The translations under genes were made by a program, and so were the position numbers. Of a DNA stretch of 64,000 bases, positions 1-21,313 are shown one piece after another (positions within the stretch are counted from its first letter, which is position 1; each line of letters starts with the position of its first letter). The stretch is from assembly GCA_965198235.1 (NCBI GenBank), contig OZ240248.1, positions 480,001 to 544,000 on the forward strand. Direction: 5' to 3'. The notes under the pieces were generated by a model, which was not told the DNA's origin, did not search any database, and saw only the letters and a program-made list of their open reading frames with translations. This DNA is from Candidatus Poribacteria bacterium. GTDB taxonomy: Bacteria; Poribacteria; WGA-4E; WGA-3G.

Positions 1-683
1 GCAACGCATCAGCGGTTGTGGCTTGTAGCGACGGTTTACGCGAACTTGCGCGAGAGACGGATATGGCTGTGAAAATGGATGTAATTCCTGATGGTTTGGA
101 TTTAGGACGCTTTGAGCCGGTTCAACGTGATGCCTGTCCGGAAAAGGTCCGAGTGCTCACAATTGGGAGGCTTATACCGCGCAAAGGTTTCCAATTTCTG
201 ATTCGCGCGCTTCCGCAAATTATTGAAAACGCGGCACACGACTTTGAAATTGAAATTGTCGGCGATGGACCGTATCAGGCGGAACTCCTAAGATTGTCAG
301 AAGACCTCGGCATAACGTCACATATCCACTTTGCGGGTTCAGTGCCGTATTCCGAACTGCCACAAAAGTATCGCGACGCTGACGTTTTCATCTTGCCTTC
401 GCTTGCGGAGGGGATGCCGCTTGTCGTTTTGGAGGCGATGGGAACGGGGTTGCCGATCGTTGCCAGTCGTGTTCAAGGCATTGATGAACTCGTGGTAGAG
501 AACGTTAACGGTGCGTTGTTCGACGCGGGTGATGTTGATGGACTTGCGCACTCCCTTGTCAAACTGATTAACGCTGGTGAAGGTCGTGTTGAGATGGGCA
601 AAGCGAGCGTTGAACGTGTTAAGCCTTACGATTGGAAACACATCGCCGACGCTTATTTAACCCTCTATGCCGATATTTTATAG
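1..683 (+). CDS. Glycosyltransferase family 4 (GT-B), 5'-truncated
   Basis: GRLIPRKG and EGMPLVVLEAM motifs; frame is open to the window edge. Confidence 0.9.
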   Translation, partial: NASAVVACSDGLRELARETDMAVKMDVIPDGLDLGRFEPVQRDACPEKVRVLTIGRLIPRKGFQFLIRALPQIIENAAHDFEIEIVGDGPYQAELLRLSEDLGITSHIHFAGSVPYSELPQKYRDADVFILPSLAEGMPLVVLEAMGTGLPIVASRVQGIDELVVENVNGALFDAGDVDGLAHSLVKLINAGEGRVEMGKASVERVKPYDWKHIADAYLTLYADIL

Positions 684-8224: not shown

Positions 8225-9553
8225 ATGAGCAAACCAAATATAGTGTACATTCATTCACACGACACAGGTCGATATGTTCAACCTTACGGGCATGCGATCC
8301 CGACTCCGAACATCCAGAAACTTGCGGAAGAGGGTGTTGTATTTCGGAACGCATTTTGTGCAAATCCAACCTGTTCACCATCTCGCGCCGCACTCCTCAC
8401 CGGACAATGGGCACACAGTTGCGGTATGGGTGGTTTGGCAAACCGCGGTTGGAGCCTTCCGGTGCCAGAGCACCTCATCACCTACACCTTGAATCAGGCT
8501 GGATATACTACCGCCTTGGCAGGATTCCAGCATGTCGTCCGAGATCTTAAGGAGACGGGATACCAGCGACTTTTATCCGAAGGCACCGTGCGCGCGGGGG
8601 CAGAAGAACGCGCACGCGACTTCATCGCGGAGAAGCACGATGCTCCTTTCTTCTTAGATGTCGGGTTTGGTGAAACGCATCGCCGAGGGAAAGGGTTCGA
8701 TCCGCCACCGGATGGAGAATCCAAAACCGACCCGCGCTATGTGAAACCGCCTGCCCCGTTCCCCGACACGCCTGTCACCCGACAAGATATGGCGGAATAC
8801 ATAGATGCGGCTCGGACGCTTGATAGAAAAATGGGTGTGGTTTTTGACGCGTTGGAAGAGAATGGACTTGCTGAGAACACGCTTGTGATATGCACGACCG
8901 ATCACGGGCTCGCCTTCCCCCGCATGAAGTGCCATCTCAGCGACCACGGCATTGGTATAATGCTCATTGCCCGTGGTCCCGGTGGCTTTAGCGGAGGACA
9001 AGTTGTGGACGGGTTAGTTAGCCAGATTGACCTTTTCCCAACTATTTGTGAATTGGCAGGAATTGAAGCACCGGCGTGGCTCCAAGGAAATTCTGTTCTC
9101 CCATTAGTTCGCGGTGAGGCGGAAGATATCCGCGATGCTGTTTTCGCTGAAGTCAACTATCATTGCTGTTATGAACCGCAACGCGCGATCCGAACCAAGC
9201 GATGGAAATATATCCGCCGCTATGACGATGCGGAAAAATGGGCACTGCCGAACTGCGATGACAGCATTAGCAAGACTTTTATGCTGGAGCAAGGCTGGGA
9301 CGACCAACCTGTTGAATCAGAGCGGTTATACGATGTCGTGTTTGATTCGTCGGAGGCACATAACCTCGCGGGGAACCCCGATTATGCAGATGTTTTGGTG
9401 GAGATGCGAGATCGTTTGGCGCAGTGGCGGACGGAAACCGATGATCCGGTGAACGAAAATCAGATTATGGTGCCACCGGAAACGGCTGTACTGAACGACC
9501 CGACGGATATATCACCCGGTGATACGCATTATCCGGCACGTGAAATGGTATAG
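8225..9553 (+). CDS. Sulfatase (N-sulfoglucosamine sulfohydrolase-like)
   Basis: KPNIV, CSPSRAALLTG formylglycine motif, TTDHG. Confidence 0.92.
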   Translation: MSKPNIVYIHSHDTGRYVQPYGHAIPTPNIQKLAEEGVVFRNAFCANPTCSPSRAALLTGQWAHSCGMGGLANRGWSLPVPEHLITYTLNQAGYTTALAGFQHVVRDLKETGYQRLLSEGTVRAGAEERARDFIAEKHDAPFFLDVGFGETHRRGKGFDPPPDGESKTDPRYVKPPAPFPDTPVTRQDMAEYIDAARTLDRKMGVVFDALEENGLAENTLVICTTDHGLAFPRMKCHLSDHGIGIMLIARGPGGFSGGQVVDGLVSQIDLFPTICELAGIEAPAWLQGNSVLPLVRGEAEDIRDAVFAEVNYHCCYEPQRAIRTKRWKYIRRYDDAEKWALPNCDDSISKTFMLEQGWDDQPVESERLYDVVFDSSEAHNLAGNPDYADVLVEMRDRLAQWRTETDDPVNENQIMVPPETAVLNDPTDISPGDTHYPAREMV

Positions 9554-9590
9554 GGTTTAGAACCCCGATTAATGTCGTTGGTGAGGTTTC

Positions 9591-9718
9591 ATGAAGATAA
9601 AAAAATAATTCGGTAATTGACGGGAGACCATGAATTGCCCTACTACAAACGAAGTTGCTTGTAGTCGTGCTATTTATAGTACGTTCGGAAATTATCCGAT
9701 TAAATTCTTAAACTTCAT
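9591..9718. mobile_element. MITE-like 128-bp element with imperfect TIRs carrying an inverted REP doublet
   Basis: Ends ATGAAGATAAAAAAATAATTCGGTAATT and (reverse complement) ATGAAGTTTAAGAATTTAATCGGATAATT; interrupts a GAGGTTTC^CTAACCTC palindrome. Confidence 0.55.
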
Positions 9719-9825
9719 CTAACCTCGCCAGAATCGAATGTAGGTTGGCTTCAATTAGAAGTGAACTCAACTCGGCACCGATAGAAATCTAAAAACGGAT
9801 GTTTGTATCTGCCCGTTGCTGTTTT

Positions 9826-10497
9826 TCAAATTCGGTTTCCAACCCACAACGCGCCGCGGCAGATAACTTTCTGAAAACTCGGATTCTCAAGAACTGCCAT
9901 ATCGTGTCCAAGAGCGAAGTAGAACACTCTGCCCTCGCCATACGTATGGTGAAATGCCATGACATGCGTCTCATCTTTTGTCTCGTCATACGCGTGCATG
10001 AGATGGTGTGATGTATCGGGATTGTGCTTTAGATAATAGAGTTCATCCGTCACCCCAAAATCGGCTAATCCTTCGGTAATCGGATGCTCGGTATCGCTCA
10101 CATTAACGGTGAAGTCCATATAGGGGCTGTGTCCATCAAAGAACCCGTTGAGCATACCGTGGTAGCCTTCAGCTTCTCTGAATGAAGCAGCTGCAGTGTG
10201 TAATCCAAAAAACCCGCCGCCCGTTTGGATATAGGTAAGTAGACCGGTTTCTTGTGCTCCTGTGAGTTCCCCGACATCGGTGTAGAAGAGCACGGTGTCG
10301 TATCTGTCAAGTCCATTGGCAAGCAGGTCGTAGTCTTGCGAGAAATCGGCTTCAATATTATCGGTGTCATTGAGCATCGCTGTCAAGAATTGTCCGTTCC
10401 CGGCATGATCGTGGTAAATCCCTTCTGTCCCGACAAATATGAGCAGTTTAAGAGTCTCCATTTTGGCGTAGCTTGCAAGCCAAAACTTGCTATGCAA
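9826..10497 (-). CDS. ThuA domain protein
   Basis: HDH, GGGFFGLHTAAASF, DELY, YGEGRVFYFALGHD; TTG start after AAGGAGG (alternative ATG 10461). Confidence 0.88.
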   Translation of the reverse strand: MHSKFWLASYAKMETLKLLIFVGTEGIYHDHAGNGQFLTAMLNDTDNIEADFSQDYDLLANGLDRYDTVLFYTDVGELTGAQETGLLTYIQTGGGFFGLHTAAASFREAEGYHGMLNGFFDGHSPYMDFTVNVSDTEHPITEGLADFGVTDELYYLKHNPDTSHHLMHAYDETKDETHVMAFHHTYGEGRVFYFALGHDMAVLENPSFQKVICRGALWVGNRI

Positions 10498-10507
10498 ACT
10501 TCCTCCT

Positions 10508-11539
10508 TTAATTGTTAGGTTGCACGAGAACTTTGACAGACCCGTGCTCATCACGACCGGCCGCGACCGCGAACGCTTGTGTAATGTCATCCAGGTTAAA
10601 CCGATGCGTGATCAGTGGATTCGGGTCGAGTTTGCCAGCAGCAAGTAAGTCGATGGCAACTTGGAACTCCGTTTTCCCACCCCGTCTGCCGTAACAGAAC
10701 GACCAGATCACTGTGAGTTCTCTACTCCGTGCGAACCGTTCTGAAAAGGAGAGCGGGGTACGATGCCCGCCTACCATACAAACGCGTCCTCGTTTCGCTG
10801 CGATCTCTGTCGCCTGTCCCAGCGTATTCGCGCTCCCACCAACTGCCTCAAAGACAACATCCGCCCCTCTGCCATCGCTCCAATCCTTGATAGCCTCGAC
10901 AGCATCCGTCTTATCTACGTTGATAGGCACGGCTCCGACTGCCTCGTGTGCGATCTGTATCGGACCCTCCGGCTTGCCCAACATGGCGATGGAGGTCGCC
11001 CCGGCGACATCTGCTACCTGAGCGATCGTCAACCCAACGGGACCGCTTCCGATAATGGCGACATGATCCCCAGGTGATACCATTGCTCTGTTGACGGCAT
11101 GGACTGCGACTGCGTAAACCTCTGCTAATGCGCCACCCTCAGATGATACACTGTCCGGCAATGTGTACACGTTTGGCGTACGGGCGACCATAAACTCCGC
11201 AAAGCCGCCGCCCGCGTGCCGCAGGTTCCCACAGATATTGTAATAGCCATTGAAGCATTCAGGACAGTTGTTACACGGAGTGATCGGTTCAACCGCTACG
11301 CGAGTACCTCTTTCATGCTCTGTAACGCCTCTGCCTATGTCGATAATCTCTCCTGTTAATTCATGTCCACCAATGCGTGGAGATAGAGGCTTCTCTGGTT
11401 GATGATGGTACCCGTGCAGATCGCTACCACAGATCCCTGTTGCTTCTATTTGTACCAACACTTGTCCCTCTTCAGGTGTTGGATCCGGTACCGTTTCGAC
11501 CCTTATGTCTTTTCCACCGTAAAATTGAGCAGCTTTCAC
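10508..11539 (-). CDS. Zinc-binding alcohol dehydrogenase family protein
   Basis: GICGSDLH, GHELTG, CNNCPEC..C, GSGPVG; GTG after AGGAG. Confidence 0.9.
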   Translation of the reverse strand: MKAAQFYGGKDIRVETVPDPTPEEGQVLVQIEATGICGSDLHGYHHQPEKPLSPRIGGHELTGEIIDIGRGVTEHERGTRVAVEPITPCNNCPECFNGYYNICGNLRHAGGGFAEFMVARTPNVYTLPDSVSSEGGALAEVYAVAVHAVNRAMVSPGDHVAIIGSGPVGLTIAQVADVAGATSIAMLGKPEGPIQIAHEAVGAVPINVDKTDAVEAIKDWSDGRGADVVFEAVGGSANTLGQATEIAAKRGRVCMVGGHRTPLSFSERFARSRELTVIWSFCYGRRGGKTEFQVAIDLLAAGKLDPNPLITHRFNLDDITQAFAVAAGRDEHGSVKVLVQPNN

Positions 11540-11800
11540 AATAGTCTCCTCAAATATAATAGTCTGTTTGAAATATAGCACAGAATCGGAATTGTGTCAA
11601 TACCAACTTTGCTGGAGCGTCCTCACTTTGGAGGTTTCCTAACCTTGTCAATCTTCCTTAAAAGATGTATCGAAAGATGTCGTAAGTACAGAGAAAGGTA
11701 AGTCCAATATGTAACCCTATTGGCTGAGAGATTGGAAATTTCGCTTGACTTCTAAAGGAGAAATGGATAAAATCAATAAAATACAATATCTAATGAGGGG

Positions 11801-12865
11801 ATGAAAATGAGAACAATTAAATTAGGTTTGATTGGGGCGGGTGGTATCTCGGGGGCACACTGTCGAACGCTTGCTGAGATTGACGGTGCTGAGATTATCG
11901 CTGCTGCCGACCTTGTCCCTGCAAACCTGGAACGTGCGCAAGAACAGTGGGGCATCAAGCGTACGTTCACTGATTACAACGAAATGCTCAAAATGGACGA
12001 GATTGAGGCGGTGTATGTCTGTACCCCCACTGGCGTGCATGCGGCACCTACCGTCGCCGCGCTGAACGCTGGCAAACATGTTTTCTGCGAGAAGCCGATG
12101 GAAGCGACGTTGGACGCTGCCGCTTCAATGTGGCGTGCCGCAAAAGAAAACGATAAAATCCTCATGGTCGGTTTGAAACTCCGGTATTCACCAGAGGTCG
12201 TTAAAGCGAAAGAGATTGTTGATGCTGGCACCCTTGGTGATATTTACTACGTCGAAACGGTTGCTGATAGACGACGAGGGAATCCGGGTGGCAGTTTTAT
12301 CCGTAAGGCGACAGCCGGTTTAGGCGCGTCTGCAGACATTGGTGTTTACGCACTGGATACCGCTCTCTATCTGATGGGACATCCCAAGCCTGTAGCGGTC
12401 TCTGGTATTACCTCTAACTATCTAAGCCTCCACAACACGTGGAATCCTGCGCTCCGTGAGACCGAAGTTGAAGATTTCGGTGTCGGCTGGGTGGTTTTCG
12501 AGAACGGTGCGCGCATGGTCTTCAAAACGTGCTGGTGCATGAACATGGATTCGCTCGGCGGGACGATTTTCCTTGGTAAAAAAGCAGGACTCCGCCTTGG
12601 TATTGGCGAAGTCCGCGGGCCGCAGGACGGTGTACGCGTCTATGGCGACAAAAACGGTGAAATTTTTGACCAAGAGTTCACCGAGTTTGAATCGGTGAGT
12701 GTATTCCATGAGGAAGATACGGCGTTTATTGACGCTGTCCGTGAAGGAAAACCTGCACCGATCGATCCTTACGGTGTGATGCTCACGAACGTTATCATCC
12801 AAGGCGTTATCGATTCTTCAAATGCCGGCGGACGCGAAGTCGCAGTGAAGGTGCCGACCTTGTAA
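11801..12865 (+). CDS. Gfo/Idh/MocA family oxidoreductase
   Basis: LIGAGGI, GKHVFCEKP, DIGVYALD. Confidence 0.9.
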   Translation: MKMRTIKLGLIGAGGISGAHCRTLAEIDGAEIIAAADLVPANLERAQEQWGIKRTFTDYNEMLKMDEIEAVYVCTPTGVHAAPTVAALNAGKHVFCEKPMEATLDAAASMWRAAKENDKILMVGLKLRYSPEVVKAKEIVDAGTLGDIYYVETVADRRRGNPGGSFIRKATAGLGASADIGVYALDTALYLMGHPKPVAVSGITSNYLSLHNTWNPALRETEVEDFGVGWVVFENGARMVFKTCWCMNMDSLGGTIFLGKKAGLRLGIGEVRGPQDGVRVYGDKNGEIFDQEFTEFESVSVFHEEDTAFIDAVREGKPAPIDPYGVMLTNVIIQGVIDSSNAGGREVAVKVPTL

Positions 12866-13091
12866 TATTGTTGGGCGAGGTCTTCGTGTCTTGCTTCCTC
12901 GTCCGGTATTTGTTGGACTATCCTTTTTCACCCTTGCAGACTCTATATGTACGGATGTACGAAAATAGTGAGACGAGGTTTGCAAGCCGATATTCAACCG
13001 TAACCCACGCTTTGGCGTGGAATACTGCAAGCTTGTTCCTTTTCATGTAACAGGCGAGATATTTCCCGTAGAAGCGCGGAGGTCCTTCAGA

Positions 13092-14183
13092 ATGAAATTT
13101 ATTGAGATTGCAGGTAAGAAAATCAAATTAGGATCTCGACTGGCGCGGTTATACGCGCTCTTCATAGATTTTACCTGCCTATCTGTCATCCAAATAATTT
13201 CGCTCTGTTTGATGCGGCTGATAGCACATATTATTTCTCCGTCAATGTGGGATCGTCCGGAAGGTGCTTGGCAAGGCTTCATATTAGGAACTTTCGTTTT
13301 TAGCAGCTTGGCTTTGTGGGCATTCGGTTTGCTTTTCATAGATGGTTTCAGGAAGGGGCAAGGGTTAGGAAAGAAACTGCTGTCCTTACAGGTGATTCGC
13401 TTGAAAGACGGCAAACCGTGTACTTTCAAAGATGCTTTCATTCGCCGGTTCGCAGGCATCTTTCAACCGCTGGATTTTTTCTGGACCCTCGGTAAAAAAC
13501 GGCAACGGTTGGGTGATAAGTTGGCAGAGACGGTAGTGGTGAAACATGAGCCGGAACTGGAACAGACTGAAGCTGAAACCGAAGATCTTGAGCAGATTTT
13601 AGAAAATACTATCGTTGAGATGAAAAACCGGCTTTCAGAAGCGCGCGGAAAGGTTAATGCTTCTATCAGTGTTGAAAAGCAATTTCAGGATACTTATGAA
13701 AGTGCTGTTTCCCAAGCGGAGCGGTGGCAAGAGCGCGCACTTATTTCCCTTAAAGCCGGACGTGAGGATTTAGCACGCGAAGACTTGGAAAAACGAAACG
13801 AGTACAGGCGGTTAGCAGATAAACACAAAAAGCAATGGGAAGACCAGAAACAGATTGTCCAAGAACTTAGCAACCTTCTTGAGCATTTCCAACAGAAAAT
13901 GATGGAGGCGGAAGGAGAGAAAGCCGCCGTCGTAGCGAAACACAGGAACATTGATGCCGAAGCACATCTCCGCGAGATGCTGAAAGAGATACAGGACAGT
14001 AAAGCATTTGAAACGCTTGCGAAGATGGATCAAGACGCGACTGAGGCAGCCACTTTGGCAAAAACGGCGGCTGAGGTGGATGTCGCATATCAGGATGCGA
14101 AATTGGAGCGCGAATTTTCGAGTTATGCTGAAGAGGCATCGCTTGACAAGGACCTCACTGAATTAAAGGCGAAATTACAGTAG
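13092..14183 (+). CDS. RDD domain-PspA/IM30 fusion protein
   Basis: RDD: RLYALFID, GQGLGKKLLSLQV, QRLGDKLAETVVV; PspA: WQERALISLKAGREDLAREDL; GGAGG RBS. Confidence 0.85.
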   Translation: MKFIEIAGKKIKLGSRLARLYALFIDFTCLSVIQIISLCLMRLIAHIISPSMWDRPEGAWQGFILGTFVFSSLALWAFGLLFIDGFRKGQGLGKKLLSLQVIRLKDGKPCTFKDAFIRRFAGIFQPLDFFWTLGKKRQRLGDKLAETVVVKHEPELEQTEAETEDLEQILENTIVEMKNRLSEARGKVNASISVEKQFQDTYESAVSQAERWQERALISLKAGREDLAREDLEKRNEYRRLADKHKKQWEDQKQIVQELSNLLEHFQQKMMEAEGEKAAVVAKHRNIDAEAHLREMLKEIQDSKAFETLAKMDQDATEAATLAKTAAEVDVAYQDAKLEREFSSYAEEASLDKDLTELKAKLQ

Positions 14184-14221
14184 GCGTGATCTATAATCGC
14201 CAGACCCTTTCAGGAATTATA

Positions 14222-15694
14222 ATGGATATATACAGTTCTCCAAATATTGTCTTTATCATGGCAGACGATATGGGATACGGTGATGTCGGTTGCTATAACC
14301 CCGATTCAAAGATTCCGACCCCGAATATGGATAAACTTGCGCAGGAGGGAATCCGCTTCACCGATGCGCACTCCCCCTCTGCAGTCTGTACGCCGACACG
14401 ATACGGGGTTTTAACGGGACGGTACTGCTGGCGAAGCCGCCTCAAACACGGCGTGCTTTACGGGTACGAGACACCCCTTATCGAACCTGACCGCTTAACA
14501 GTTCCTCAATTACTGAAAGATGCGGGTTACAATACTGCATGCGTGGGTAAGTGGCATTTGGGTCTCGGATTTTCGACGGTTCCCGGATACGATTTCGATT
14601 TCAATGCGCCGCTGCCGTGGCAGAACGCAGAACGTGAATTGGAAGAACATATCGACTTCACAGCACCATTAACCGGCGGTCCAGTAGATCTCGGCTTTGA
14701 CTATTTCTATGGAAACGCCGGTTGCCCGACCTGCCAACCCCCTTACGGCTTCATTGAGAACGATACGTTTGTCGAGATTCCGAGCGTCTATCATGAGGTG
14801 CCAGAGTTTACGAGCCGCCGTGGAATGATGGTCCCAGAATGGGAGCACAAAGATGCTGATCCGATTATCGCGCAGAAGGCGGTTGAATATATTGAGAGAC
14901 AATCCGATGCCGACACCCCTTTCTTCCTCTATCTGACTCCGTCCGCGCCACATGAACCTTGTACAGAAGCGGTCGTTCCAGATTTCGCACGTGGCAAAAG
15001 TAGTGCTGGTCCGCGCGGGGATTTGGTGTGGCTTGTCGATTGGATGGTAGGTGAGGTAATGGATGCGTTAGAACGTACCGGTAAAACCGATGAAACGCTT
15101 ATCTTCGTCACAAGTGATAACGGCGCATTGCCCGGCGACCGAATCCAAGGCGACAATAGTCCAATGCCGTATCACCTCTATGACCATAAGTCATGCAGCG
15201 ACTGGCGCGGCTACAAGGCGCATATCTGGGAAGGTGGACATCGTGAACCTTTGATTGCGCGCTGGCCCGGAGTTATCGCACCAAACACGCAAACCGACGC
15301 ATTAACTTGTCTCACGGACCTGATGGCGACGTGTGCCGCTATTGTTGGGACAGAAGTCCCCGACGATGCGGGACAGGACAGTTGTAATGTCTTGCCTGCG
15401 CTGTTAGATGAAAAGACAGAGAACCCCTTGCGGGAGGCTATCGTACATCACTCCAGTACCGGTGTTTTTTCTATCCGTCACGGCGCGTGGAAGTTGATTC
15501 TGGGAACGCAAGGTTCAGGTGGGTGGCCTCCACCGCGCGATGGAGGTCCGAAATCGGATGTCCCAGGGCAATTGTATCAGATTTACGAGGATCCGGGTGA
15601 AGCAAACAATGTATGGGAAATATATCCAGAGATTGTGGAACGCCTGACGGGGTTGCTGGAAAAATTTCAGCGAGATGGACACAGTCGGATGTGA
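14222..15694 (+). CDS. Arylsulfatase
   Basis: PNIVFIMADDMGYGD, CTPTRYGVLTGRY, GKWHLG, SDNG. Confidence 0.93.
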   Translation: MDIYSSPNIVFIMADDMGYGDVGCYNPDSKIPTPNMDKLAQEGIRFTDAHSPSAVCTPTRYGVLTGRYCWRSRLKHGVLYGYETPLIEPDRLTVPQLLKDAGYNTACVGKWHLGLGFSTVPGYDFDFNAPLPWQNAERELEEHIDFTAPLTGGPVDLGFDYFYGNAGCPTCQPPYGFIENDTFVEIPSVYHEVPEFTSRRGMMVPEWEHKDADPIIAQKAVEYIERQSDADTPFFLYLTPSAPHEPCTEAVVPDFARGKSSAGPRGDLVWLVDWMVGEVMDALERTGKTDETLIFVTSDNGALPGDRIQGDNSPMPYHLYDHKSCSDWRGYKAHIWEGGHREPLIARWPGVIAPNTQTDALTCLTDLMATCAAIVGTEVPDDAGQDSCNVLPALLDEKTENPLREAIVHHSSTGVFSIRHGAWKLILGTQGSGGWPPPRDGGPKSDVPGQLYQIYEDPGEANNVWEIYPEIVERLTGLLEKFQRDGHSRM

Positions 15695-15714
15695 GTATTC
15701 TACACAGATGTTGA

Positions 15715-15815
15715 AGAAATCCACAGAAATACCCAAGCAATACGCAGAAATCCGCAGAAATCCGCAGAAACACCCAAGCAAAAACCCCTATCAAAAACCC
15801 CAAGCAAAAACCCCC
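15715..15815. repeat. Low-complexity tandem repeats (GCAGAAATCC and CCCAAGCAAAAA units)
   Basis: Degenerate 10-14 nt units visible directly. Confidence 0.7.
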
Positions 15816-15831
15816 GCTGGGGCTTAGCGGA

Positions 15832-15860
15832 ATTATACTTTCAAATCAACGAAAAGTCAA
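15832..15860 (-). promoter_or_regulatory. Orphan sigma70-like promoter pointing antisense into the sulfatase
   Basis: TTGACT-17-TATAAT on the minus strand. Confidence 0.5.
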
Positions 15861-15959
15861 ACTAAAGTCCAGAGAACGCAACCAAACCCGTATCTATTGG
15901 ACAAGGTCCCCGTGCCTTAGTCCAATAAACTTTATGAGATAGTTTGAGGAACAAAGACT

Positions 15960-16796
15960 ATGGAAACCACTACGACACTTGATTCACTCTTTCGATTATC
16001 TGGTCCGTCGCAGGCGGATATCGATTCTTTTCATAACGATGGCTACATCGCGTATCCAGATGTGTTCACGGACGACGGCAGAGAAGGATTGATTGAGGAA
16101 ATCACACAGCGTTTTGAACCGACACGTCAGTTCATTGAGGCATTGAATAATGGTAACCAACAAGAACGCTCTTATTTTATTCGTCCATGGAACGATCGCG
16201 GTGCCTACAGCGATCAGCTTATCGACGACCCTTTCATTACGGCACTGATACGCGCAACTATCGGTGACGCATACCACTTCTGCCACTCTGCGCTCAACAT
16301 CGCACCCCGTGGTGTCGGTCCACTTGGATACCACCAGGACCATCACCATTGGAAGCATGAGAACCCTGTTAACCTCGTGGAACGCGATAACTACTATATA
16401 CAGATTCTGTACTACCCGAACGGTTTTACACGCGGCGATCGGAATCTCAAAGTTATATCGGGCAGCCATAAGGTTGCTCCGACAAAAGAAGCGACACCCG
16501 AACGGATGCTTGCAGGCGATTTCGACGGAGAAGCTGGACGTAAACTGGAAGAGAAACGGCTTGAATTGCCACCGGGCAGCATGGTCTACATTAATGCCCG
16601 CATCTTCCACGGAGTAGAAACGAAGCCTGTGGACTCACCGCAACTCTATCGTATCTTCGCTATTGACATTTTCAAGGAAGCGGGGCCGCCGCACCGCTAC
16701 ACGCAAGAAATCCCGGCGGAATGGATCGAACGCGCTTCCCCAGAACGTAAGAAGCTGTTTATTCGCGACGCTTATACAGAAGGGTGTTGGAAGTGA
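15960..16796 (+). CDS. Phytanoyl-CoA dioxygenase (PhyH) family
   Basis: F..DGY start, YHQD, SGSHK, IFHGV facial triad. Confidence 0.85.
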   Translation: METTTTLDSLFRLSGPSQADIDSFHNDGYIAYPDVFTDDGREGLIEEITQRFEPTRQFIEALNNGNQQERSYFIRPWNDRGAYSDQLIDDPFITALIRATIGDAYHFCHSALNIAPRGVGPLGYHQDHHHWKHENPVNLVERDNYYIQILYYPNGFTRGDRNLKVISGSHKVAPTKEATPERMLAGDFDGEAGRKLEEKRLELPPGSMVYINARIFHGVETKPVDSPQLYRIFAIDIFKEAGPPHRYTQEIPAEWIERASPERKKLFIRDAYTEGCWK

Positions 16797-16937
16797 TACC
16801 ATCCACTACCTAAAGGTAGGGAATTTGACGGAAAGCGTGTTAAACTCGCTACACAAGATTTTTTTAATGACTCCTGTGATTCTATTGACTTAAATCACTG
16901 TTTGGGGTACAATCGTTGCCAAAAACAGGGAGTCATA

Positions 16938-18548
16938 ATGAGCACACCAGATCGCCCGAACATTCTTTGGATATCTTTAGAGGATACGACCCCACGCTTC
17001 GGTTGTTACGGGGATACGCTTGCGCGGACACCGAATATTGACCGACTTGCTGCTGGCGGCTGTCGGTTTCCGAATGCGTTCTCGACTGCTGGTGTCTGTG
17101 CACCGAGCCGCTCCGCGATCATTACCGGCATGTACCAGACCTCCATTGGTACGCATCACATGCGCACCGCCCATACAAATCAAAACACGCCTGACATGCC
17201 GACCCCATATTCTGCAGTTCCGCCACCCTATGTCAAGACCTTTACTGAATATCTCAGGGGTGCGGGCTATTATTGCACGAACAACAGCAAGACCGATTAT
17301 CAGTTTACACCGCCAATCACGGCTTGGGACGAGTGTAACAACACTGCGCATTGGCGAAATCGTGAAGCGGGGCAATCCTTCTTTTCGGTCTTCAATCCGA
17401 CTGTAACGCACGAGAGCGGTATGTGGGAACGGGAGGATCGCCCGTTGACCACAACTACGAATCCGGATGACGTGCAGTTACCGCCCTATCTACCGGATAC
17501 ACCAAAAGCACGGCAGGCGTTGGCACGTCAATACGATAATCTCGCCACCGCCGATGCCCGCGTCGGTGAGTTGCTTGATCAGTTGGAAGAAGATGGACTT
17601 GCGGAGAACACGATCGTCTTTCTCTGGAGCGATCACGGCGAAGGACTTCCTCGCGGCAAACGGTGGCCCTACGACGCTGGTATTCGTATCCCGTTGATTG
17701 TGCGCGGGCACGATTCGCTTTCTGCTGGCAGTTCCAGTGAGCAGCTCGTGAGTCTGATTGATCTCGGTCCAACGGTGCTATCACTTTGCGGCGTGCAAGC
17801 ACCGGAACACCTACAGGGACAACCCTTCCTCGGACCGGAGAAGATGGAACGCGACTATATCTTCGCGACCCGCGACCGTTACGACGAATCTTATGATATG
17901 GTCCGTGCTGTGCGTGACAAGCGGTATAAATACATCAGAAATTATTATCCTGAAAAACCGTATCTGCTCTGGATTCCCTACCGTAATCGCCACCCGATCA
18001 TGCAGGAGATGTGGCGGTTGTATGCCGCAGGCGAGTTGGAAGGTGATCAGGCAGTCATGTTCCGTTGTCCGCGCCCCGCTGAAGAACTTTACGATGTTGA
18101 AGATGACCGGTATGAACTCAACAATTTAGCAGCGGATGCTGAGCATCAAGATGCCCTGGAACGGATGCGCGGCGCGTTGACGCAGTGGCAGTCCGAATTT
18201 GGAGACATGGGGGATATCCCGGAAGAGCAGATGGTCGCGAAGTGGTATCCTGATGGTACACAGCCACAAACGGCGGCTCCGATTTTTATTCCGATTAACG
18301 CCGAACATCCCGGTATGGAGGTAACCCACGAGGATGGCGAATGGGCGGCTCCGCTTGTTTTACAACTTCACTGCTCCACGCAAGGCGCGTCTATCGCCTA
18401 TACGATGGAGCAAGGGGACGATGCACGTTGGCAACTGTATACCGACCCACTGCGTCTATCGAAAGGCGAAACCGCCGTGCGCGCAAAAGCGATCCGCATC
18501 GGCTATCATGAAAGTGAAGAGAAAACGATTCATCTCAAAGTTTCATAA
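16938..18548 (+). CDS. Sulfatase with C-terminal Fn3-associated/chitobiase-like domain
   Basis: RPNILW, CAPSRSAIITG, SDHG; C-terminal CSTQGASIAYT...LYTDP...VRAKAIRIGY. Confidence 0.9.
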   Translation: MSTPDRPNILWISLEDTTPRFGCYGDTLARTPNIDRLAAGGCRFPNAFSTAGVCAPSRSAIITGMYQTSIGTHHMRTAHTNQNTPDMPTPYSAVPPPYVKTFTEYLRGAGYYCTNNSKTDYQFTPPITAWDECNNTAHWRNREAGQSFFSVFNPTVTHESGMWEREDRPLTTTTNPDDVQLPPYLPDTPKARQALARQYDNLATADARVGELLDQLEEDGLAENTIVFLWSDHGEGLPRGKRWPYDAGIRIPLIVRGHDSLSAGSSSEQLVSLIDLGPTVLSLCGVQAPEHLQGQPFLGPEKMERDYIFATRDRYDESYDMVRAVRDKRYKYIRNYYPEKPYLLWIPYRNRHPIMQEMWRLYAAGELEGDQAVMFRCPRPAEELYDVEDDRYELNNLAADAEHQDALERMRGALTQWQSEFGDMGDIPEEQMVAKWYPDGTQPQTAAPIFIPINAEHPGMEVTHEDGEWAAPLVLQLHCSTQGASIAYTMEQGDDARWQLYTDPLRLSKGETAVRAKAIRIGYHESEEKTIHLKVS

Positions 18549-18562
18549 GGAGATTACTAATA

Positions 18563-19657
18563 ATGGCGCAACAGAACAGCCAAGATTATTTCGTTTATGT
18601 CGGGACCTATACACACGGAGATAGCGAAGGGATTTACGTCTACCGCTTAGACGGAGCGACTGGTGCCTTAGCATATAGCAGCAAGATGACAGGCATTGAG
18701 AATCCATCGTTTCTGGAGATACACCCGAGTGGACAGTATCTCTTTGCTGTCAATGAACTGGGCGAGTTTGAGGGTGAAGATAGTGGCGCGGTCACAGCGT
18801 TTTACATTCATAAAGAAACAGGGGAGATTAGTTACCTCAACCAACGTGCTACCGGTGGTGGTGCTCCGTGTCATCTGAGCGTGGACGCTACCGGCAAATG
18901 CCTGCTCGTGGCAAACTACGGAGGTGGAAGCGTTACTGCTTTCCCCATAGCGTCGGATGGCAGGCTCGGTGAAGCCTCGGATTTTGTGCAGCATCAGGGA
19001 TCCAGCATCAATCCGCAACGGCAGATGGAACCTCACGCACACTCAATTATGATCGACCCGGGCAATCGTTATGCCTTTGCACCTGATTTGGGACTTGATA
19101 AAGTTCTCATCTATCAATTAGATGCGGAAAACGGAACGCTCACGCCTAACACGCAACCGTGGGCACGCGTGCAACCGGGCGCGGGACCGCGGCATTTCGA
19201 TTTCCATCCGAACGGACAGTACGCATACGTGATTAACGAGATAGATTCTACTTTCACTGCTTTTCGGTACGACGCGAGCGCGGGAACGCTGGCTGAATTC
19301 CAGACAGTCTCCACGCTTCCCGAGAATTTCGATGGCACCAGTCATTGTGCCGATATCCACGTTCATCCTTCTGGAAAATTCTTGTACGGGTCGAACCGGG
19401 GACATGATAGCATTGCGATTTGCACGATTGATTCAGAGACGGGAATGCTGAGTCCCATCGGTTATGAGTCAACGCAAGGCCAAACACCGCGGAATTTCGG
19501 GTTGAATCCAGAAGGGACGTTCCTTTTTGCCGCTAACCAACAGACCGATACGGTTGTCACGTTCGCAATTGACGCTGAAACTGGCGAATTAAATGCGACA
19601 GGAGACGTAGCAGAGGTGCCGGCACCGGTCTGTTTGAAGATGCTACCGTGTGCTTAG
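18563..19657 (+). CDS. pgl: Lactonase family protein (6-phosphogluconolactonase-like beta-propeller)
   Basis: YVGTYT, NPSFL, ANYGGG, PHAH, GPRH, SNRGHD, TPRNF. Confidence 0.88.
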   Translation: MAQQNSQDYFVYVGTYTHGDSEGIYVYRLDGATGALAYSSKMTGIENPSFLEIHPSGQYLFAVNELGEFEGEDSGAVTAFYIHKETGEISYLNQRATGGGAPCHLSVDATGKCLLVANYGGGSVTAFPIASDGRLGEASDFVQHQGSSINPQRQMEPHAHSIMIDPGNRYAFAPDLGLDKVLIYQLDAENGTLTPNTQPWARVQPGAGPRHFDFHPNGQYAYVINEIDSTFTAFRYDASAGTLAEFQTVSTLPENFDGTSHCADIHVHPSGKFLYGSNRGHDSIAICTIDSETGMLSPIGYESTQGQTPRNFGLNPEGTFLFAANQQTDTVVTFAIDAETGELNATGDVAEVPAPVCLKMLPCA

Positions 19658-19668
19658 TTTTTACGACG

Positions 19669-19694
19669 ACGGGCGGCGTTCCCTGCCCGCCCGT
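19669..19694. terminator. GC-rich hairpin between convergent genes
   Basis: ACGGGCGG/CCGCCCGT stem. Confidence 0.45.
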
Positions 19695-19714
19695 TATACA
19701 CGCGGTTTTTTACG

Positions 19715-21313
19715 CTATTGGCGTTGCTGTCTACGTTTCTCTTGAAGCTGATCCCACGGGTAGATGAAACAGCGATCTGTCCAATCTTGATAAAGCCCAA
19801 CGAGCTCCTTTAGTTTTTGTGGATGCTTGGCAGCAAGATTGTTGATTTCTGTCCGTTCGGCTTCCACGTCGTAGAGTTCCCAATCGCCGGGGAACTTGCA
19901 AACCAGTTTCCATTTACCTTGGCGGACTGCACAATTGCCTTCGTGTTCCCAATAAAGAACCTCTTTACCGTTATCCTTCCCATCGAAAATCGGTACTAAG
20001 CTTGTTCCCTCTAACGGCAAAATCGGTTTCCCGTTGTGTTCTTCAGGGTAGGTTGTCCCTGAGACATCAAGGCATGTTGCCATGATGTCCGGTAATTGCC
20101 CGGGTTGATGGCGCAACTCTCCCGCCGATCTTATAGCATCTGGCCAATGTGCAATCAGCGGCGTAGCTATACCGCCTTCATGCACCCAGTGTTTGTATTC
20201 TCGGAACGGTGTATTGGACAGATTTGCCCACGGCACGCCGTAACTCTGATAGGTGGTCTCGGGCCCGGGCATGATGCTGGGATCGTTGCCACGATAGATG
20301 GGTTGTCCGTCGGAGGTCGTCTCAGTACTGATGAGTGAATCGCTGTCGCGTATTGCGGGAGGTCCTCCGATTTCTTCGGCACAACCGCCGTTATCGGCTA
20401 AAAACAGGATGAGTGTGTTGTCGAGCTCGCCGGTCTCTTCCAACGTGTTGATAATTCGTCCAATACCTGCATCCATACGGGTGATTTGCGCTGCGTAAAC
20501 CTCCATACGGCGTTGATTCCATTCCTTGTACTGCACATCGCTCCAAGGTGGCTGTGAGGGATCACGTGCCGTGAGCTGCCATGCTTCGTCTAAAATTTTC
20601 ATTTCCCGCATCCGTGAGAGCCTTTCTTCTCGGAGCTCGTCCCATCCAGCGGCGAAACGTCCATTGTAGTAGGCGATGTCTTCTTCGTGCGCGTGCAGGG
20701 GCCAATGCGGCGCAGTGTAAGCGACGTAGGTGAAAAACGGGCGGTCAGGGTTCTTTTCGGTGTGATTACGGATAAAGGTCGTTGCTTCGTCGCTGATAGC
20801 ATCTGTGAGGAAGTAACCTTCAGGGAGTTCGTCGTGTTGGATACGTGTGTTATCGCGCGTCAGAGTGTTTGGTTTCCAAAAATTTGCAGCACCGGTGATA
20901 ATACCGTAGTACTGGTCGAACCCACGCTGGCAGGGCCAACTATGCTTGGGTCCATCAGCACCGGTATGCCGAGAGATATGCCACTTGCCGCTCATATAGG
21001 TGCCGTAACCTTCTGAACGGACAGCATCAGCAACGGTGATACAGCGATCGTTTAGGTCGCCACGATAGCCTTCTAATCCATCGTCGCCCATCATGTGGCC
21101 TACCCCAGTTTGGTGCGGATGTAGCCCGGTAAGCATGGAGGCACGGGATGGACAACAGCGTGCGGTGTTGTAAAATTGTGTAAACCTCAGCCCACCTGCG
21201 GCAAGCCGATCCAGATTCGGGGTGTGAACTTCGCCGCCGTAGCAACCTAAGTCAGAGAAACCCATATCGTCATTCAGGATGAGGACGATGTTCGGTTTTC
21301 TATTTTCATTCAT
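19715..21313 (-). CDS. Arylsulfatase
   Basis: KPNIVLILNDDMGFSD, CCPSRASMLTG, GKWH, ADNG. Confidence 0.93.
   Translation of the reverse strand: MNENRKPNIVLILNDDMGFSDLGCYGGEVHTPNLDRLAAGGLRFTQFYNTARCCPSRASMLTGLHPHQTGVGHMMGDDGLEGYRGDLNDRCITVADAVRSEGYGTYMSGKWHISRHTGADGPKHSWPCQRGFDQYYGIITGAANFWKPNTLTRDNTRIQHDELPEGYFLTDAISDEATTFIRNHTEKNPDRPFFTYVAYTAPHWPLHAHEEDIAYYNGRFAAGWDELREERLSRMREMKILDEAWQLTARDPSQPPWSDVQYKEWNQRRMEVYAAQITRMDAGIGRIINTLEETGELDNTLILFLADNGGCAEEIGGPPAIRDSDSLISTETTSDGQPIYRGNDPSIMPGPETTYQSYGVPWANLSNTPFREYKHWVHEGGIATPLIAHWPDAIRSAGELRHQPGQLPDIMATCLDVSGTTYPEEHNGKPILPLEGTSLVPIFDGKDNGKEVLYWEHEGNCAVRQGKWKLVCKFPGDWELYDVEAERTEINNLAAKHPQKLKELVGLYQDWTDRCFIYPWDQLQEKRRQQRQ

Follow-up and report, generated by a model that had tools for sequence, protein, structure and literature searches.

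The bacterial ESCRT-III proteins PspA, Vipp1 and LiaH form rings, rods and carpets, and some eukaryotic ESCRT-III proteins possess an attachment of their own, namely the N-myristoylated Vps20/CHMP6 and CHMP7, which has an N-terminal membrane-binding domain. In PspA and Vipp1, the helix alpha0 is described as lining the membrane-facing surface, where it anchors the polymer and drives curvature (PMC12358876, PMC7619361), and membrane partner proteins such as LiaI are reported to recruit members of the family (PMC7619361). According to the accessible text of Ravi et al. (2024), more than 98% of about 2,500 PspA homologues have the PspA_IM30 domain alone, rare fusions of PspA involve NlpC/P60 and PspAA, and a Snf7 homologue is fused to an RND-family transporter in Actinobacteria (PMC11237479). 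The RDD family of membrane proteins is defined, in the accessible text of PMC5996927, by an arginine where the first membrane helix begins, an aspartate in the middle of that helix and a second aspartate near the C-terminus, and the same source reports Na+(Li+,K+)/H+ antiport by an RDD protein of Halobacillus, an activity for which C-terminal R/D residues are required. Here, we describe a gene joining these two families in a stretch of 64,000 nucleotides from a Candidatus Poribacteria bacterium (assembly GCA_965198235.1, contig OZ240248.1, positions 480,001 to 544,000; hereafter the window, in whose coordinates positions are given), and we discuss what its product, an RDD-PspA fusion in which a membrane domain stands in the place of alpha0, is likely to do.

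A preliminary description of the locus, made by a model from the sequence alone, had proposed that a single 363-residue open reading frame (ORF) joins an RDD domain to a PspA/IM30 domain starting at EDLEQILE and lacking the usual N-terminal amphipathic helix, and both proposals were borne out. In Pfam, RDD (PF06271) matches residues 16-145 (E 1e-12; score 49 bits, cut-off 24.1; profile positions 4-136 of 137), and the C-terminal half does match PspA_IM30 (PF04012), over residues 158-361 (E 3.9e-16; score 59.8 bits, cut-off 33.9; profile positions 16-217 of 220). In the PDB, phmmer matched residues 161-362 to Vipp1 and PspA chains (8qbw, 6zvr, 7o3w, 7abk and others) over their residues 20-217, with 13 distinct sequences at E up to 0.01, E values from 5e-13 to 1e-11 for matches such as 8qbw, 6zvr and 7o3w, and 23-29% identity to the solved Vipp1 and PspA chains. 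The scores against the NCBIfam equivalogs of PspA (TIGR02977, 55.7 against 242.95) and LiaH (NF045984, 39.4 against 380) are both far below cut-off, and by these sequence comparisons the fusion belongs to the PspA/IM30 family without being an equivalog of PspA in E. coli or of LiaH in B. subtilis. Pfam gave no match of the fusion to Snf7 (PF03357) at E up to 1, and the Snf7 core 5fd9 was found only at a Foldseek E of 0.2; the relation to Snf7/ESCRT-III is at the superfamily level only.

The absence of alpha0, a helix of about 20 residues, is seen both in the Pfam match, which begins at profile position 16, and in the PDB alignments, which begin at residue 20. Canonical PspAs of other Poribacteria read M-GIFDRVSTIFKANVNSALDKA-EDPEKML, in which an amphipathic alpha0 leads into the conserved EDPE motif that begins alpha1, and the PspA part of the fusion opens at E164-D165-L166-E167, where the family consensus has EDPE and the window copy reads EDLEQILE. 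What precedes EDPE is GIFDRVSTIFKANVN in the canonical relatives and RDD plus linker in the fusion, whose junction across relatives is GDK(L/F)AETVVVK-YEPEPEQTEVET-EDPEKVLE; the linker of the window copy is HEPELEQTEAET, followed directly by EDLEQILE. From these alignments, alpha0 and its loop (about 22 residues) have been cleanly exchanged for 151 RDD residues and a 12-residue acidic linker. The longest ORF at the site extends over 13017..14183 on the plus strand and has GTG as start codon, and the in-frame ATG at 13092 gives the 363-residue protein P0001, with its stop codon at 14181-14183. We set the gene start at this ATG because a GGAGG lies 9 nt upstream and homologues align from that methionine. 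The reading frame is open throughout, with no internal stops.

The fusion is not peculiar to this assembly. A search of 5.8 billion proteins returned 653 at E up to 0.001, and both Pfam domains were found in 119 of the 120 best relatives among them, the exception (P0050) having a small deletion within the RDD part. These best relatives come from many independent assemblies, complete chromosomes included, and their sources name them 'PspA/IM30 family protein', 'hypothetical protein' or 'phage shock protein A' of Candidatus Poribacteria. Across 176 Poribacteria species genomes, 163 had a match at E up to 0.001, and the full-length matches among those listed were confined to the window's own family (f1), in which 105 of the 112 genomes, the window's included, matched at E 4.2e-61 or better, G069, G102 and G124 had weak matches only, and G073, G079, G096 and G100 had none. 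Five genomes of other families matched over the PspA part only (query residues 154-362, in frames of 229-276 aa) or, for G044, over the RDD part separately, and the remaining 59 genomes outside f1, judged by best E only, gave 2.5e-33 or weaker or nothing, like PspA-only matches. An exhaustive search of 1.84 billion cluster representatives identified 28 proteins at E 1e-30 or better, and the full-length ones of these put through Pfam all had PspA_IM30 and, with the exception of P0133, P0136 and P0142, RDD as well; below that level the matches were either PspA-only (query residues 161-362 onto residues 20-221) or RDD-only. A single ESM Atlas cluster of 115 members has PF04012 and PF06271 each on 100% of its members, with Poribacteria as its commonest taxon. 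The most divergent fusion representatives are exemplified by P0143 (44% identical), for which no match at E 1e-60 or better was found in the 176 Poribacteria genomes and for which the ESM Atlas gave the same Poribacteria-dominated cluster; the fusion may therefore extend beyond one family of Poribacteria.

Four RNA-library runs from one sponge metatranscriptome study, in which 54-89% of the sampled words were present, provided contigs across the junction (X1, 1090 nt over 12686-13775; X5, 363 nt over 13414-13776), and another X1 contig, of 1929 nt over 13842-15770, reaches into the sulfatase gene downstream. These contigs attest to presence only, not to expression level or a single transcript, and DNA may have been carried over. 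Outside this family, PspA is joined to other domains too: among 30 Pfam-scanned proteins of the 150 best matches from the 1.84 billion cluster representatives we found CesT-like, adenylate kinase, DUF6115, alpha-2-macroglobulin and a second PspA domain as partners, and of nine non-RDD proteins inspected by hydropathy only P0252 has a single N-terminal hydrophobic stretch, with alpha0 kept. Longer forms of the fusion family also occur (P0124, 504 aa; P0127, 566 aa; P0125, 651 aa; P0128, 716 aa), two of them with two RDD stretches before one PspA domain and two with two PspA stretches; P0125 and P0128 resemble a tandem pair of copies translated as a single protein.

Hydropathy analysis gives two membrane spans, at about residues 20-46 and 61-84. 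The ratio of basic to acidic residues is 6:1 in residues 1-20, 1:2 in the loop 47-60 and 10:2 in residues 85-125, and residues 119-133, a further hydrophobic stretch lying between RR and KKRQR, peak at only 0.77 in a 19-residue Kyte-Doolittle window, too low to cross the membrane. Because there are two spans and this charge pattern, the positive-inside rule predicts a topology with both termini inside and the PspA part in the cytoplasm, tethered at the position of alpha0.

An AlphaFold2 (AF2) model of the whole protein, built on a 47-sequence alignment, has a mean pLDDT of 70.9 and a pTM of 0.39, with strands 3-6, 9-13, 99-103 and 147-151, short helices within 112-131, long helices 16-48 and 59-85, and PspA helices 161-221, 225-283, 288-328 and 331-362, of which the alpha1/alpha2-3 hairpin reaches pLDDT 79-91. 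When this model was compared with the PDB by Foldseek, ranks 1-17 were all Vipp1 or PspA (best E 2.8e-5), and the hairpin of E. coli PspA (4whe) superposes with an rmsd of 2.0 A over 118 columns (TM 0.77). The PspA half is therefore predicted to have the ESCRT-III-like fold, with a long alpha1/alpha2-3 hairpin followed by alpha4 and alpha5. A complex prediction with four copies of residues 158-363 scored 0.01 against a mark of 0.42, with no control runs, and weighs neither way on self-assembly.

Over 47 fusion sequences, in which column entropy and residue conservation were computed, the lowest entropy is that of the RDD block 86-151 (0.68), followed by alpha5 (0.73), the N-terminal hairpin and alpha4 (0.78 each), alpha2/3 (0.84) and alpha1 (0.88); the linker has 1.39, the first and second membrane helices have 1.62 and 1.65, and the outer loop is the most variable part (2.46). 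The cytoplasmic parts are highly conserved and the membrane helices and outer loop variable, which is an anchor-like pattern. In the PspA half, F342 never varies and Y345 is kept in 90% or more of the sequences; they align with Vipp1 F197 and L200, which we take to form the contact of alpha5 with the hairpin in the Vipp1 polymer. This Vipp1 pair is the one mutated in PDB entry 8qbs, by its title. The net charge of alpha2/3 is -1 to -4 in seven fusions versus +1 to +4 in six canonical PspAs, and such an acidic alpha2/3 would fit, if weakly, with a relaxed electrostatic binding to the membrane.

As to the origin of the fusion, a tree of the PspA part (quick maximum-likelihood search, 51 rows, SH-aLRT support only) places 20 fusion sequences in one clade (SH-aLRT 100) with a long stem of 1.25 changes per site, nested within the canonical free PspAs of other poribacterial families (support 99), and by this tree the fusion arose once, from a canonical poribacterial PspA. 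With a canonical PspA as query, a free full-length copy was found in only one of the 112 genomes of the family, G147 (G147:C378:3844-4506; a 248-aa frame, 62% identical to a sister-family PspA), whose genome is 87% complete with 6% contamination; this copy could be a retained ancestral gene or contamination. Among the best 150 of the 328 matches, all others lie in fusion genes and start at query residue 9-23. The window genome has two further PspA_IM30 matches, both distant soluble paralogues with N-terminal helices: one of 226 aa (L002; Pfam E 8e-14; G000:C1:1576742-1577422, L002:1471-2151) and one of 278 aa on the minus strand (L003; E 4e-7, below cut-off; G000:C1:3643087-3643923, L003:1381-2217). 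They score 43 bits against the PspA part of the fusion, versus 100-113 bits for canonical PspAs of sister families, and the end branch of L002 on the tree measures 3.05. The L002 paralogue adjoins, as judged by eye, a DNA methylase-like ORF and an ABC ATPase-like ORF.

The RDD half belongs to a subfamily of small stand-alone RDD proteins, of about 150 aa, that share its N-terminal motif; they occur in Krumholzibacteriota, in one Gemmatimonadaceae genome and in other Poribacteria, G044 among them (36% identity). No stand-alone RDD protein of that subtype was found in the window genome, which has one more distant RDD protein (31% identity). Both ancestral genes appear, from these comparisons, to have been merged into the fusion, and replaced by it, in the ancestor of the family. 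Synteny of the ancestral genes in G044, in which the free PspA lies by a GFO/IDH/MocA gene and the free RDD by a Zn alcohol dehydrogenase gene, was considered and rejected, these neighbours being only 29-31% identical to those of the fusion in the window and hence paralogues. Because none of 13 stand-alone RDD loci (query: a 4-sequence alignment) had a PspA gene within 8 kb, the neighbourhoods lend no support to a general RDD-PspA partnership.

The fusion has itself been multiplied. Tandem paralogues number from one to four in the genomes compared (one in G173 and in the window genome, two in G105 and G078, three in G169 and four in G149), and many further adjacent pairs and triplets are visible in the genome-wide matches of relatives. 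The arrays lie between the same oxidoreductase and sulfatase genes (L027, G169:C1:2189549-2193017; L028, G149:C1:2891389-2896146; L029; L030). One type of paralogue has a long insertion between the membrane helices (about 390-400 aa), and the paralogue lineage that adjoins the sulfatase gene is common to two genera on the tree. In G149, an extra 392-aa ORF, absent from the other loci, lies between the oxidoreductase gene and the array.

With moderate confidence, we envisage the fusion as an integral inner-membrane subunit of the PspA type, permanently inserted and polymerising on the cytoplasmic face. The RDD anchor would be a two-helix hairpin, with both ends inside, plus a small conserved cytoplasmic beta/alpha subdomain, and the 12-residue acidic linker would join this anchor to a complete PspA core, alpha1-alpha5, at the exact site of alpha0. 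The cores would polymerise as in Vipp1 and PspA, by stacking of hairpins and contacts of alpha5 on the hairpin, in two dimensions, and every subunit would always be inserted, without recruitment from a soluble pool or a switch from soluble to bound. The result would be a scaffold embedded constitutively in the inner membrane, which it would stabilise or bend; in relatives with two to four tandem paralogues, it would probably be heteromeric. In short, we infer that the fusion behaves like a PspA with a hard-wired anchor.

Several points weigh against this proposal. Polymerisation, the membrane-stabilising role and the heteromers are all things that we infer; the whole-protein AF2 model is only moderately confident, and the tree comes from a quick search with SH-aLRT support only. 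Each subunit of the polymer would have to bear a 150-aa membrane domain inside a lattice of the Vipp1/PspA type. The conserved R/D/D triad of RDD and the juxtamembrane arginines are superfluous for a mere anchor, and one RDD protein has been described as a Na+(Li+,K+)/H+ antiporter (PMC5996927). Finally, seven of the 112 genomes of the family have no strong match, one of them (G096) being 99% complete, and the protein is in this sense dispensable.

An alternative is that RDD is the working part, a small channel or transporter of ions or solutes that must oligomerise, clustered or gated by the PspA coiled coil, for instance with membrane stress or loss of proton-motive force leading to ion flux, which we hold to be unlikely but worth retaining. 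The fusion conforms to the R/D/D definition of its family: the signature residues R16/R19, D26 and D142 are each kept in 90% or more of the 47 sequences, as are D84 and R118/R119, the most conserved block of the whole protein (86-151) is in the RDD part, and antiport has been reported for the one Halobacillus protein (PMC5996927, accessible text). A model of the RDD part by itself (residues 1-156, 13092-13559; pLDDT 78.3, pTM 0.68) resembled chain A of 7t92 most closely among solved structures (Z 9.0; 124 of 156 residues at an rmsd of 3.7 A; 12% identity), the next match falling to Z 5.3. By its entry title, 7t92 is a peroxisomal retro-translocon formed by a RING ubiquitin-ligase complex, a channel-forming complex, and the resemblance may stem from distant kinship or from a helical arrangement that is widespread; it is a lead only. 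A Z of 9 for a helical model is possibly a chance arrangement, however, and by sequence the RDD domain had no meaningful match among solved structures (the best being cytochrome b6, E 1.6) and no link to 7t92; our search found no literature joining RDD with Pex10 and Pex12. There are, moreover, only two spans per chain, and the membrane helices, signature residues aside, are among the least conserved parts, which is unusual for a transport pathway. The PspA half keeps its five helices and polymer-contact residues and is as conserved as the cytoplasmic block of RDD.

The preliminary description had cast the fusion as a permanently anchored nucleator for membrane repair or remodelling, in which the RDD domain takes over from both the amphipathic helix and the partner proteins. 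The first half of that replacement stands, as the anchor sits at the site of alpha0. The second half is weak. The claim that pspBC, liaI and pspF neighbours are missing proved correct, the neighbours being metabolic enzymes, and no psp or lia genes were found near the fusion; PspC, PspB and LiaF-like_C had no matches in the window genome, which is 96.3% complete, pspF and liaI not having been searched genome-wide. PspC is also absent, however, from four of five other Poribacteria checked, and those four keep a normal PspA, and because of this the missing partners are not special to the fusion. A nucleator or receptor would recruit soluble PspA-like subunits, as in LiaI-LiaH or in the seeding of ESCRT-III by myristoylated Vps20 and CHMP7, and for such a role speak the position of the anchor and the two soluble PspA-like paralogues with N-terminal helices, L002 and L003. 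The soluble pool that it implies is scarcely to be found, though: the closest canonical soluble PspA, the ancestral one, is in a single genome of the 112, the remaining soluble paralogues are very distant, as their bit scores and the L002 branch indicate, and it is the anchored form that has multiplied in tandem, which suits a building block over a seed. Since the soluble orthologue is nearly gone and the fusion amplified, the fusion is more likely a polymerising subunit than a seed, and we consider the role of nucleator rather improbable.

An equally improbable extension of the polymerising subunit is that the main PspA of the cell became a polytopic membrane protein whose paralogues co-polymerise into a heteromeric ESCRT-III lattice, and that clustered RDD units, no passive anchors, form a gated pore or ion path there, coupling scaffolding to transport across one and the same membrane patch. 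If true, the heteromeric lattice would be a bacterial counterpart of the multi-subunit eukaryotic ESCRT-III.

Still less probable, in our judgement, is a sensor or regulator that does not polymerise, in which, on the model of PspA and PspF in E. coli, the PspA coiled coil would engage another protein of the cytoplasm and RDD would sense a membrane or periplasmic cue. Different inputs could explain why the outer loop and membrane helices diverge between paralogues, some of which have large insertions in the loop, and the long stem of the fusion clade suggests that function changed once the fusion had formed. Against this, the neighbours in all six loci compared are metabolic enzymes, with no linked gene for a regulator, and the polymer-contact residues are conserved. 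That the gene is in decay or is an artefact of annotation or of assembly (the last a concern already voiced in the preliminary description), a misassembly or the loss of a stop codon having run two genes together, can be set aside almost entirely, given the same junction in 119 of the 120 best relatives and in 105 of the 112 family genomes, the open frame, the conservation of both halves and the RNA-library contigs that bridge the junction.

The features of the gene and its flanking genes are collected in Table 1.

Table 1. Features of the RDD-PspA fusion gene and its conserved neighbours (window coordinates; residues are those of the fusion protein)
Feature	Position	Strand	Basis or remark
GFO/IDH/MocA oxidoreductase, conserved upstream neighbour	11801..12865	+	Pfam; same position in 6/6 loci
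Shine-Dalgarno-like GGAGG	13078..13082	+	9 nt 5' of the ATG; read from sequence
RDD-PspA fusion coding sequence, 363 aa plus stop	13092..14183	+	Homologues align from the Met at 13092
Conserved basic N-terminal beta-hairpin MKxIEIAGKKFKLAS, residues 1-15	13092..13136	+	AF2 strands 3-6, 9-13; predicted cytoplasmic; motif also in stand-alone RDD relatives
Transmembrane helix 1, residues 16-48, with RDD signature R16/R19, D26	13137..13235	+	Hydropathy, AF2 helix
Short variable outer loop, residues 49-58	13236..13265	+	Insertions here in relatives
Transmembrane helix 2, residues 59-85, closing in conserved D84-G85	13266..13346	+	Hydropathy, AF2 helix, conservation
Cytoplasmic/interfacial RDD part, residues 86-151	13347..13544	+	GQGxGKK, LKDGKPCTFKD, RR, GDKxAETVVVK; entropy, AF2 strands 99-103, 147-151
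Acidic disordered linker HEPELEQTEAET, residues 152-163, in the place of alpha0	13545..13580	+	pLDDT <50 at 154-164
PspA/IM30 (ESCRT-III-like) domain, residues 164-363	13581..14180	+	Pfam, PDB phmmer, AF2, Foldseek
PspA-domain helices: alpha1 to 221; alpha2/3 225-283; alpha4 288-328; alpha5 331-362			
Sulfatase, conserved downstream neighbour	14222..15694	+	38 nt after the stop if ATG 14222 is used; 34-39 nt in 5 other loci

The order ThuA (minus strand), Zn alcohol dehydrogenase (minus), GFO/IDH/MocA oxidoreductase (plus), fusion or fusions, sulfatase and PhyH is the same in all six loci compared, from two genera, and a further sulfatase and a lactonase follow in most of them; this conserved locus may reflect general synteny rather than a functional link. 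In the window, a dense block of carbohydrate and sulfate-ester genes extends over 8225-19657, with sulfatases at 8225-9553, 14222-15694 and 16902-18548 and, by Pfam, ThuA, Zn alcohol dehydrogenase, GFO/IDH/MocA, PhyH and a 7-bladed lactonase, and an additional ORF of the sulfatase family, identified by clustering, lies on the minus strand just past 19657. A scan of 11500-19800 for promoters and terminators gave counts close to those of shuffled sequence (11 versus 8.8 and 11 versus 9.1), with no promoter-like site in the 226-nt gap 5' of the fusion gene, and an Rfam search of 12500-16200 gave no match at E up to 0.1.

The interval from the sulfatase gene to the PhyH gene contains a short dispersed repeat (15716-15862, with a core of about 80-100 bp at approximately 15733-15815), for which a 171-nt query had 52 matches in its own genome, mostly of 45-105 nt, at 77-100% identity. 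The summed depth of RNA-library contigs over this repeat is 35-428, against about 0-15 nearby, in the four runs, with many loose ends. It has hairpins at 15812-15832 on both strands and no Rfam match, and is REP- or MITE-like in appearance.

As far as we searched, the RDD-PspA fusion is undescribed in the literature, although it is a variant of the known PspA family and its architecture is already visible in public databases, as 'PspA/IM30 family protein' at NCBI and as the ESM Atlas cluster with both domains. The term 'RDD' is absent from the main texts of Ravi et al. (PMC11237479), whose supplementary tables might list the architecture, of Popp et al. 2022 (PMC9239133) and of a 2025 review (PMC7619361), and literature searches for PspA_IM30 with RDD, or Poribacteria with phage shock, judged by titles and the starts of abstracts, found nothing on the fusion. 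A link to the cell compartments of Poribacteria was considered and dropped, since the accessible text of Jahn et al. gives it no support.

The fusion offers a natural test of whether an ESCRT-III-type lattice needs a reversible peripheral anchor, of how permanent insertion affects assembly and curvature, and of whether bacterial arrays of paralogues can form heteropolymers, and through it the poorly understood RDD family gains a first defined structural context. The hosts are uncultivated sponge symbionts; the fusion proteins are of modest size, and their expression and reconstitution seem feasible.

Compared with PspA, Vipp1 and LiaH, the fusion has in common the alpha1-alpha5 core, the EDPE start, hydrophobic residues of alpha5 at the F197 and L200 positions and, by the tree, descent from the canonical PspA of its own phylum, and differs from them in having a 151-aa integral membrane domain and a 12-aa linker instead of alpha0, in its tandem arrays and in the absence of PspB, PspC and LiaF-like_C. 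With the stand-alone RDD subfamily it shares MxxIEIAGKRYKLAS, the R/D/D residues, two membrane helices, GxPCTF and the ending GDKxAxTxVVK, at 32-39% identity; the stand-alone proteins, however, end soon after VVVK, where the fusion continues into the PspA core. Like Vps20/CHMP6 and CHMP7, it has an ESCRT-III core held by more than an amphipathic helix, but those proteins are peripheral and nucleate soluble subunits, whereas the fusion has a transmembrane anchor and probably no matching soluble subunit. The Snf7-RND fusion of Actinobacteria, as given in the accessible text of Ravi et al. (PMC11237479), is a precedent for a member of the PspA/Snf7 superfamily joined to a transmembrane transporter, from which the fusion described here differs in that the precedent belongs to the Snf7 branch and has a membrane domain other than RDD.

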